The translations under genes were made by a program, and so were the position numbers. DNA of 61,892 nucleotides from an uncultured Methanosarcinales archaeon (GTDB taxonomy: Archaea > Nanobdellota > Nanobdellia > Woesearchaeales > GW2011-AR4): positions 1 through 61,892 of the forward strand of contig CAYXMT010000001.1 in the NCBI GenBank assembly GCA_964466175.1, read 5' to 3'. How positions within the stretch are numbered: the stretch's first letter is position 1; the number at the start of each line of letters is the position of its first letter. A model generated the notes under the pieces. It made no database searches, was not told the DNA's origin, and saw only the letters and a list, made by a program, of their open reading frames with translations. Shown piece after piece: positions 1,537 to 48,327 of the stretch.

Positions 1537-1675
1537 GGGCTGTGCCTAATTAGGGGAGGTGGGTGGGAAGAATAACAAGATGATATTAACCAAAACTGCC
1601 CGTGAATTGCATGTGAGCAAAGCGAACATGCGGCTTTCAGGGACTTTTGACTTCAGTTCCGCTCTGGCACAGCCC
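1537..1675 (+). ncRNA. Candidate structured RNA, E-element copy 1
   Basis: 10-bp terminal helix GGGCUGUGCC (1537-1546) / GGCACAGCCC (1666-1675). Core is CGUGAAUU (1601-1608), 6-bp stem GCAUGU/ACAUGC (1609-1614 / 1626-1631) and loop GAGCAAAGCGA. The same architecture occurs at 8506-8683 and 35655-35728. It is a G+C-rich island between two AT-rich promoter regions. Confidence 0.4.
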
Positions 1676-1718
1676 TTTGAGTTAAATTTAAATAATCAGA
1701 ACAATAACTATCCTTAAT

Positions 1719-8458: not shown

Positions 8459-8505
8459 GATATAATATGAGAATATGTTGTATTTATATATTGCTATAAT
8501 CAAGA

Positions 8506-8683
8506 GGTTGGAGTGAAAGTCGGTGCTTGTGCGTAAATTGCCAAAGAATAAAATTCCGCAGGATTATACTGTACGACCTGAGCGTCGTGAATTGCAAGCG
8601 AACAATGTGAGCTTGTCCGCTACTCACGATTGAGAGGAATGCTAAGGCCTCGCACAAGTACAAATTAGATTTTCACACCAACC
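8506..8683 (+). ncRNA. Candidate structured RNA, E-element copy 2 (largest)
   Basis: Helix GGUUGGaGUGAAA (8506-8518) / UUUCACaCCAACC (8671-8683). An 11-bp helix GUGCUUGUGCG (8523-8533) / CGCACAAGUAC (8651-8661) contains one G-U. Core is CGUGAAUU (8586-8593), stem GCAAGC/GCUUGU and loop GAACAAUGUGA. G-U pairs favour the plus strand. Confidence 0.45.
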
Positions 8684-8745: not shown

Positions 8746-8869
8746 GGCGGTGTAGTTCAGCCTGGTTCAGAGCGCTAGACTCATATACTTGAGTTATGAA
8801 GCATTTATGCTGATGATATACCTCAACCGGGTTATCTAGAAGTCGTGAGTTCAAATCTCGCCACCGCCA
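8746..8869 (+). tRNA. tRNA-Met or Ile2 (anticodon CAT) with a 48-nt intron after position 37
   Basis: GGCGGTG-TA-GTTC..GAGC-G-CTAGA-CTCATA [intron 8786-8833] A-TCTAG-AAGTC-GTGAG-TTCAAAT-CTCGC-CACCGCC-A. The anticodon stem lacks the GGG/CCC initiator signature. Confidence 0.85.
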
Positions 8870-35634: not shown

Positions 35635-35728
35635 CACCTCTGAGTTTACGAAGAGGTGCCAGAAATTTCGTGAATTGTGAGCGAGTTCGCAACGAGTTCA
35701 CTTGCATTTCACAAAATTTCTCAGCACC
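35635..35728 (+). ncRNA. Candidate structured element, E copy 3, overlapping an rpoN SD-pairing hairpin (strand uncertain)
   Basis: Hairpin CACCUCU (35635-35641) / AGAGGUG (35652-58), whose complement on the mRNA strand pairs the rpoN SD. Outer helix 35655-35668 / 35714-35728. Core is CGUGAAUU (35669-76), stem GUGAGC/GUUCAC (one G-U on the plus strand) and loop GAGUUCGCAACGA. Confidence 0.4.
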
Positions 35729-35758
35729 TTGCCCTATATTTATTGTATGCATTTTATT

Positions 35759-48241: not shown

Positions 48242-48327
48242 AGCCCCGTAGTCTAGCGGTCAAGGATATCGGCTTTTGGACGCTTGGAAAACAGCCGACG
48301 GCCCAGGTTCGAATCCTGGCGGGGCTA
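48242..48327 (+). tRNA. tRNA-Gln (anticodon TTG) with a ~13-nt intron after position 37
   Basis: AGCCCCG-TA-GTCT..GGAT-A-TCGGC-TTTTGG [48280-48292] A-GCCGA-CGGC-CCAGG-TTCGAAT-CCTGG-CGGGGCT-A. Confidence 0.8.

Follow-up and report, generated by a model that had tools for sequence, protein, structure and literature searches.

A dispersed K-loop-like cassette in intergenic regions and structured RNAs of Woesearchaeota

We have found that three G+C-rich hairpins in the window, i.e., the whole stretch of 61,892 nt of archaeal DNA analysed here, belong to one family of dispersed repeats (the E family), which is specific to a clade of Woesearchaeota (DPANN) and counts ~60–70 distinct copies. The repeated unit, called the cassette below, is ~45 nt long, or ~75 nt including its extended arms. 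It has been copied to many unrelated intergenic sites and to the unpaired tips or loops of other structured RNAs, and at orthologous sites, some species have the cassette and others lack it. Its apex fits a K-loop, a variant of the K-turn. Overall, we consider it somewhat probable that this is a dispersed, insertion-prone K-loop cassette that would serve as a binding arm for L7Ae wherever its transcription is in sense. The cassette looks non-autonomous.

Three copies in the window

The original prediction started from an 8-mer (CGTGAATT) shared by three sites and followed by a 6-bp stem and a GA...GA loop. We have confirmed this arrangement at all three sites. The 8-mer has exactly three occurrences in the window, at 1601, 8586, and 35669, each time on the + strand, and the stems GCATGT/ACATGC, GCAAGC/GCTTGT, and GTGAGC/GTTCAC can be read from the window letters as they had been given. 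Copy 1 lies between the start of the minus-strand ABCE1 gene and a small zinc-ribbon ORF, copy 2 between minus-strand prs and an intron-containing tRNA-Met, and copy 3 in the spacer between rps9 and rpoN, on the strand opposite to the L13-S9-RpoN operon. Their parts are listed below, with the evidence on which each copy is placed.

1600–1642 (+): cassette copy 1 (sequence, fold, models R1 and R2), with lower pairs CC/GG and UGAA/UUCA
1601–1608 (+): 8-mer of copy 1
1609–1614 with 1626–1631 (+): upper stem of copy 1
1615–1625 (+): predicted K-loop of copy 1, GAGCAAAGCGA
1632–1642 (+): 3' strand of copy 1, GGCUUUCAGGG
8584–8630 (+): cassette copy 2 (sequence, fold, model R2)
8586–8593 (+): 8-mer of copy 2
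8594–8599 with 8611–8616 (+): upper stem of copy 2
8600–8610 (+): predicted K-loop of copy 2, GAACAAUGUGA
8617–8628 (+): 3' strand of copy 2, CCGCUAC plus UCACG, where UCGUGA pairs with UCACGA
35655–35728 (+): cassette copy 3 with extended arms (sequence, fold, model R2), outer stem GGUGC/GCACC and AGAAAUUU/AAAUUUCU
35669–35676 (+): 8-mer of copy 3
35677–35682 with 35696–35701 (+): upper stem of copy 3
35683–35695 (+): predicted K-loop of copy 3, GAGUUCGCAACGA
35702–35713 (+): 3' strand of copy 3, UUGCAUU plus UCACA

The 8-mer alone is not significant, as three occurrences stand against ~1.1 expected and 9 of 100 shuffles also give three. This count, together with the low score of copy 1 described below, is what speaks for a chance likeness of three unrelated G+C-rich hairpins, a reading whose probability we regard as negligible. 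By a rough estimate, the chance of finding such a hairpin after a given 8-mer is <1e-4, and folding against shuffles gives z values of -4.95 for copy 1, -4.5 for copy 2 with its host, and -6.4 for copy 3. In addition, we have derived a covariance model, R2, from 28 copies from elsewhere, with the window sequence and the orthologues of copy 2 left out. This foreign-only model finds copy 3 with 66 bits (E 8e-14) and copy 2 with 29.4 bits (E 1e-4), and dozens more copies show the same anatomy, which refutes chance likeness for copies 2 and 3.

Copy 1 is the most diverged member, since it reaches only 11 bits (E 3.5) with R2, being the best + strand match after copies 3 and 2; with model R1 it scores 53 bits. 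Its membership rests on the identity of 21 of its first 25 positions to copy 2 and on the common hairpin anatomy.

Consensus, helices, and spread of the family

The copies come from Woesearchaeota genomes and metagenomes, and most of them have a near-identical core. A pattern scan over one genome per species, filtered on stem pairing, has given 11 full matches, of which eight are clear members; at least seven of these come from Woesearchaeota MAGs that are the S9/ABCE1 relatives of the window. By the same S9 and ABCE1 relatives, the source of the window is a DPANN archaeon of the Woesearchaeota type. The metagenome scan, in which the stem and flanks were fixed and the loop was free, has given 87 matches, ~65 of them unique and about six attributable to chance. 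The tandem CGTGAATTGNNCGTGAATT-type repeats in Prevotellaceae contigs (L149, L151, L179, and others) have been set aside as chance pattern matches unrelated to the cassette.

The consensus reads N-GUGA-AUU-GUGAGC-[GA...GA]-GCUCAC-UCGCAUN-UCAC-N'. That is, from base to tip, there are a closing helix that includes GUGA/UCAC, an internal loop, a 6-bp helix, and the K-loop-like apex. The internal loop is asymmetric and conserved, with AUU on the 5' side against UCGCAUN on the 3' side. The opening base of the 8-mer is variable and changes together with the base that follows the downstream UCAC (C-G, U-A, U-G); therefore, the GUGA/UCAC helix is continuous with the closing stem, and the 8-mer is one variable pair, the helix strand GUGA, and the 5' strand AUU of the internal loop.

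The upper stem is 98.8% paired, and the same stem (GUGAGC with GCUCAC or GUUCAC) is found in ~60 of ~67 copies. Besides it, there are four to five covarying subtypes: GCAUGU/ACAUGC, GCAAGC/GCUUGY, GCACGC/GCGUGU, GCGAGC/GCUCGU, and GUGGGC/GCUCAC. The predicted covariation of the stem hence holds in part: pairing is kept across the subtypes, but the changes come from these four to five diverged subtypes and not from every copy. Three flanking pairs show two-sided changes in 9, 4, and 7 cells, with 7–13 of 28 copies unpaired at each, and the covariation score is 0.136 versus 0.080 in shuffles, none of 500 shuffles reaching 0.136.

While the core is constant, the flanks differ, and every copy is intergenic or within an RNA gene. 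Many copies have common extended arms (CCAG-GAAAAUC ... GAUUUUC-CGCUGG). The core is kept even in L025, from a species whose S9 is only ~73% identical. We have seen no orientation bias of the copies relative to neighbouring genes, no recurrent neighbouring protein in an all-against-all BLAST of 418 ORFs within 2 kb of copies, and no cassette match in viral contigs.

Around some copies (L321, L319, L293, L323, L299), long non-coding stretches are filled with short hairpins of the GAAAAU-N-AUUUUC type, extending ~260 nt on each side of the copy on the minus strand of L321 and over ~2250–2810 in L319. These stretches may represent another repeat family or one larger structured RNA. In L248 (5361–6735), two tandem archaeal pilin-like genes have a copy on either side, and the 60-nt flanks of the two copies are identical; the pair reflects a segmental duplication and not two insertions made independently.

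The apex fits a K-loop

L7Ae binds the K-loop, a K-turn variant, of archaeal H/ACA and C'/D' RNAs, and in the described K-loop, GA...GA sits directly on a stem with a loop of ~7 nt or more (PMC7991803). All three window copies have two GA dinucleotides placed directly on the helical stem, where tandem sheared G-A/A-G pairs are possible, and the loop between the GA steps is 7 nt in copies 1 and 2 and 9 nt in copy 3. These features match the K-loop definition in PMC7991803, and the earlier view of the apex as an unrecognised GA platform has to be given up.

Among 67 copies collected with the loop unconstrained, GA...GA is kept in 55, and one GA is lost in the other 12. The apical loop ranges from 5 to >20 nt over the family with widely variable sequence; the commonest apex is GA-G(UUCG)C-AAC-GA, i.e., a closing G-C pair plus a 3-nt AAC 'bulge'. 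The central copies in the host X RNA (see below) retain GA...GA with a changed loop interior in four species, as seen for the orthologues of copy 2 in L164, L253, and L264.

In every copy, 6 bp separate the internal loop from the G-A pairs. In archaeal H/ACA RNAs, the K-turn or K-loop stands 5–6 positions above the pseudouridylation pocket (PMC7991803), and this typical spacing is the reason to consider the cassettes as archaeal H/ACA guide hairpins that have lost the ACA box. We regard this reading as very improbable. A guide should have variable strands, but both strands of the cassette loop keep their sequence (AUU, with UCGCAUN in 59 of 67 copies), and the 5' strand is merely 3 nt once GUGA is paired with UCAC. 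No ANA follows the lower stems, and there is no single-stranded ACA or ANA 14–16 nt from the loop top, where the box should stand relative to the target position; the base after UCAC covaries with its 5' partner. An ACA at positions 10–12 in copy 3 and L025 is merely accidental, its third base being the covarying one. Moreover, dozens of copies with one identical 'pocket' would guide the same site.

Comparison with Rfam and other RNA classes

With Rfam 15 at the gathering threshold, the whole window yields two tRNAs only. At the three loci and the host orthologues, matches with E up to 10 consist of microRNA-hairpin noise and one C/D match with E = 5. The predicted lack of any named family among matches to the three loci thus stands at both the gathering and the E-value thresholds. 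Neither the cassette nor the X and Y host RNAs can thus be assigned to an Rfam family, and the literature searched describes none of the three.

Several specific identities have been considered and rejected. SRP RNA, RNase P RNA, and 5S rRNA give no Rfam signal for the hosts at 1537–1675 and 8504–8683. A GAAAGUC that looks like RNase P CR-I is simply one strand of a covarying terminal helix. A box C/D sRNA should have RUGAUGA and CUGA boxes with ~12-nt guides; here the only likeness to a C box is the GUGA in the 5' strand, with the wrong spacing. In a bulge-helix-bulge intron, a 4-bp helix has a 3-nt bulge at either end, each on a different strand; judged on the consensus, the unpaired 3 nt and 7 nt are both at the same end of the GUGA/UCAC helix and make an internal loop.

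Host RNAs of copies 1 and 2

Copies 1 and 2 lie inside two longer structured RNAs, named Y and X here.

1537–1675 (+): host Y RNA, 139 nt, with copy 1 in its interior (fold and homologues)
8504–8683 (+): host X RNA, 180 nt, with a ~30-bp terminal helix and copy 2 at its centre

The long terminal helices had been taken as part of the element. This is not so for copies 1 and 2, where the helices belong to host RNAs that exist cassette-free elsewhere. The Y RNA is closed by a 10-bp terminal helix, GGGCUGUGCC/GGCACAGCCC, and folds with -54.1 kcal/mol (the z of copy 1 above) versus -42.9 kcal/mol on the minus strand. The 5' and 3' parts of Y recur in homologues, of which those in L081, L358, and L442 are without the cassette; L308 has it at another position, and a bare stem remnant is left in L104. 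The genome scan for Y-RNA ends gave mostly bacterial chance matches and yielded the homologues in L358 and L442. A 52-codon GTG-start ORF at 1559–1717 (+) overlaps copy 1 and is probably spurious, since the Y-RNA homologues carry stops and a different interior there.

The ends of Y form an inverted repeat of 10 bp, a GGGGAGGUG resembling a Shine-Dalgarno sequence lies close to the 5' end, and the interior is variable and AU-rich. Since Y occupies more than one genomic locus and has been reduced to a bare stem in one genome, it may be an insertion in its own right.

The X RNA is ~140 nt without cassettes and has orthologues in at least seven contigs (L164, L253, L264, L274, L279, L303, L249). 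Read in the + sense, its terminal helix has three compensatory pairs along with several G-U pairs, and a TATA-like box stands 13–16 nt upstream in every orthologue. According to species, the cassette is found at a central, 5', or 3' position of X, or at two of these, and the empty central site is a mini K-loop, CUGA-GC-GAA-GC-GA.

If these hosts (1537–1675 and 8504–8683) are transcribed in the GA sense, i.e., the sense in which the loop reads GA...GA, the cassette tip would form an L7Ae-type K-loop. Judging from the sequence alone, this tip would add a predicted L7Ae-binding arm to the host RNA.

The junction of X (CGUAAAUU...GGCC-UCGCAC, near-motif at 8532) resembles the loop strands of the cassette, and this likeness hints at a possible common ancestry.

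A bounded insertion in the rps9-rpoN spacer

Copy 3 provides the clearest case of an insertion, as given by the comparison of filled and empty sites.

35640–35729 (+): 90-nt insertion with copy 3 in the rps9-rpoN spacer (filled versus empty sites)
35636–35657 (+): small GA-framed hairpin ACCUCU-GAGUUUACGA-AGAGGU, which adjoins copy 3

The insert has the termini CTGAG...CTCAG and is accompanied by a 5-bp direct repeat, CACCT, at 35635–35639 and 35725–35729. L002, L003, L007, and L010 have the site empty, as GTTCACCT^TGTT..., while it is filled in the window and L005, the K-loop part of the L005 insert having since been deleted. Most S9 relatives have nothing at the copy 3 site, and most ABCE1 relatives have nothing at the copy 1 site. 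Copy 3 is identical in eight strain-level contigs that encode identical RpoN (from JGI, ENA, and NCBI, one labelled as marine metagenome). A direct repeat is resolved at this one site only, the other copies having no empty site for comparison, and the CACCT repeat could fit a transposase or a microhomology-mediated insertion equally. With copy 3 a bounded insertion and the extended arms common to many copies, the claim that the elements share no ends and are not MITE-like turns out to be wrong for the family as a whole.

These observations bear on the reading that the cassette is an immobile RNA domain, i.e., the core of old paralogous small RNAs bound by L7Ae and, at the internal loop, by an unknown partner, with the differences among species due to loss. 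In favour of it, a conserved core with a variable closing helix and apical loop is the usual signature of a protein-bound RNA, the core is kept at the distance of L025, and the X junction (CGUAAAUU ... UCGCAC) resembles the loop strands. However, identical 45-nt cores occur at three X positions, in a tRNA variable arm, and within another copy (see below), for which loss alone is insufficient. The rps9-rpoN site is empty in most relatives with the insert bounded by a direct repeat, and in at least three contexts the cassette runs opposite to the transcript of its host. An immobile domain is therefore quite unlikely in our assessment.

The small hairpin at 35636–35657 is present in L005 too. Its 5' arm overlaps the Shine-Dalgarno of rpoN on the opposite strand, and its 3' arm can alternatively join the outer stem of copy 3. 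On the minus strand of 35635–35729, i.e., in the sense of the operon mRNA, the rpoN Shine-Dalgarno AGGUG can pair with a CACCU, and this CACCU can alternatively close the long cassette hairpin through a second AGGUG. The same three-part arrangement is seen with different sequence in L330 and L025. It could be a translational switch or a mere by-product of insertion.

L005 and L104 belong to one MAG (binchicken_co48_510), in which the copy 3 hairpin of the rps9-rpoN spacer (L005) and the Y RNA upstream of ABCE1 (L104) both have lost their interiors with the outer stems left, as if hairpin tips were deleted easily.

tRNA hosts and nested copies

Cassettes are also found in tRNA genes. In L289 (1381–1506, +), the tip of the variable arm of tRNA-Ser(CGA) carries a cassette in sense orientation, and ARAGORN calls the tRNA-Ser only once the cassette is removed. 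Antisense copies lie in introns of tRNA-Trp and tRNA-Met, between D'-like CUGA and C'-like GAUGA boxes. The tRNA-Trp host is confirmed by ARAGORN, and the tRNA-Met host has been read by alignment with the window gene, the ARAGORN call on L161 (Ser, act) having looked unreliable. The tRNA-Met and tRNA-Trp intron copies show the same CGAG-to-UGAU change, which suggests gene conversion between copies. In addition, one copy is nested within the K-loop of another.

In the window itself, a tRNA-Met(CAU) at 8746–8869 (+) has an intron of ~48–50 nt with D'-like AUGA and C'-like UGAUGA boxes around a short hairpin (AGCAUUUAUGCU); it is found by Rfam, missed by ARAGORN with default settings, and found by ARAGORN with the intron option. 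In its orthologues in L161, L247, and L329, an antisense cassette stands at this hairpin. Besides its anticodon-loop intron, the L161 gene contains a further ~30 nt inserted directly ahead of the T arm, which presumably represents a non-canonical intron. Another window gene, tRNA-Pro(UGG) at 48242–48327 (+), has in the Rfam alignment a 16-nt insertion in the anticodon-loop region, which is presumably an intron.

The sites of the cassette hence comprise small-RNA K-loops, a C'/D' loop of tRNA introns, the tRNA-Ser variable arm, and its own apex. One may imagine from this a mobile RNA domain that specifically colonises the unpaired tips of structured RNAs and brings a predicted L7Ae landing pad with it, an idea that we rate as rather unlikely. 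Its spread might be RNA-mediated, through an RNP followed by reverse transcription or recombination, or alternatively might use a hairpin-targeting DNA mechanism undescribed in archaea.

Strand and level of recognition

The GA strand appears to be favoured by the K-loop itself and by the upper-stem variants GUUCAC, GCUUGU, GUGGGC, and GCUCGU, which are G-U wobbles in the GA sense. For the minus-strand reading, the reverse complement loses GA...GA and turns the G-U pairs of the upper stem into A-C mismatches, while the flanking stems show no such bias, and we have rejected it. Actually, G-U pairs of the flanking stems are commoner in antisense than in GA-sense folding (48 versus 23), as one would expect of flanks that are host hairpins under selection on the strand of the host. 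Each of the five independent insertions into X and Y has the same sense as its host.

GA...GA is kept even in copy 3 and the tRNA-intron copies, although the only evident transcription there runs antisense to them. Therefore, RNA-level selection on the K-loop cannot account for all of the conservation, and part of it must come from recent copying, gene conversion, or recognition at the DNA level. Such opposite-sense copies, in the rps9-rpoN operon and the tRNA introns, are probably just stable hairpins there.

It is here that a DNA-level palindromic repeat (REP-, PATE-, or MITE-like) has to be weighed, with the K-loop likeness incidental and the RNA without function. A transposase or nuclease from another locus would then recognise the hairpin with its conserved mismatches (G-A/A-G and the UCGC bulge), either as folded single-stranded DNA or in palindromic form. 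The antisense copies just mentioned agree with this, as do the near-identical core at many unrelated intergenic sites in either orientation to genes, the filled and empty copy 3 site with its 5-bp direct repeat, the nested copies, the intron change that suggests gene conversion, and the intergenic regions of related contigs, which are full of GAAAAU...AUUUUC hairpins. Against it, we have seen neither a transposase nor a recurrent neighbour gene around the copies and no match in viral contigs, and the terminal inverted repeats are very short. Elements of the IS200/IS605 and REP types are not known to make a target duplication, while copy 3 appears to have one. The consistent host sense of the five X and Y insertions and the GA...GA kept at the centre of X in four species despite loop drift, which looks like an RNA-level constraint, also speak against a pure DNA repeat. 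We consider this alternative as unlikely on the whole, albeit one to be taken seriously, and keep the insertion-prone K-loop cassette with a predicted L7Ae-binding role as our preferred reading.

Implications

DPANN archaea have tiny and densely coded genomes with almost no annotated non-coding RNAs beyond tRNA and rRNA. The cassette is a concrete marker for new RNA genes in these lineages, and with a ready-made, predicted L7Ae-type K-loop in varied RNAs, it shows that RNA-protein modules can join existing RNAs. Its insertions also explain why several tRNA genes are missed by finders, as for the tRNA-Ser that is called only after removal. If L7Ae indeed binds the cassette, the X and Y host RNAs would be candidates for new L7Ae ribonucleoproteins; on the mobile-domain idea, they would add new members to the L7Ae-associated RNAs of DPANN archaea. 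Should RNA hairpin tips truly be its targets, the cassette would be unusual among mobile elements.

Comparison with known systems

The cassette is like known K-loops and K-turns in having GA steps on a Watson-Crick stem, mostly with a loop of at least 7 nt in the described manner, and standing 6 bp above an internal loop. Unlike K-turn RNAs, it is not part of a guide RNA and is without C/D boxes, an ACA box, or variable guide strands. The pair next to the G-A pairs is a plain C-G in the cassette, versus U-U in C'/D' motifs.

Like REP/BIME, Correia, and ERIC sequences and archaeal MITEs, the cassette is a short, non-coding, multi-copy, intergenic imperfect hairpin in either orientation. With MITEs and dispersed palindromes it further shares the many non-coding copies at unrelated loci, the sites filled or empty among genomes, the one short direct repeat, and the nested copies. 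In contrast to REP/BIME and MITEs, the cassette conserves its inner core and not its ends, its terminal repeats are very short, and no cognate transposase has been seen among the ORFs near the copies. Many cassettes, moreover, sit precisely at the hairpin tips or loops of RNA genes, and the apex is a recognisable RNA-protein motif.

There is also a likeness to rRNA expansion segments and to the box C/D RNAs of tRNA introns, where extra helices are placed on unpaired tips with the host fold intact. For intron-encoded box C/D RNAs, the likeness is direct in two cases, the tRNA-Trp and tRNA-Met introns with C'/D'-like boxes that host the cassette. Unlike in expansion segments, one and the same cassette sequence occurs in different hosts and at different positions, and this therefore indicates copying rather than gradual local growth.
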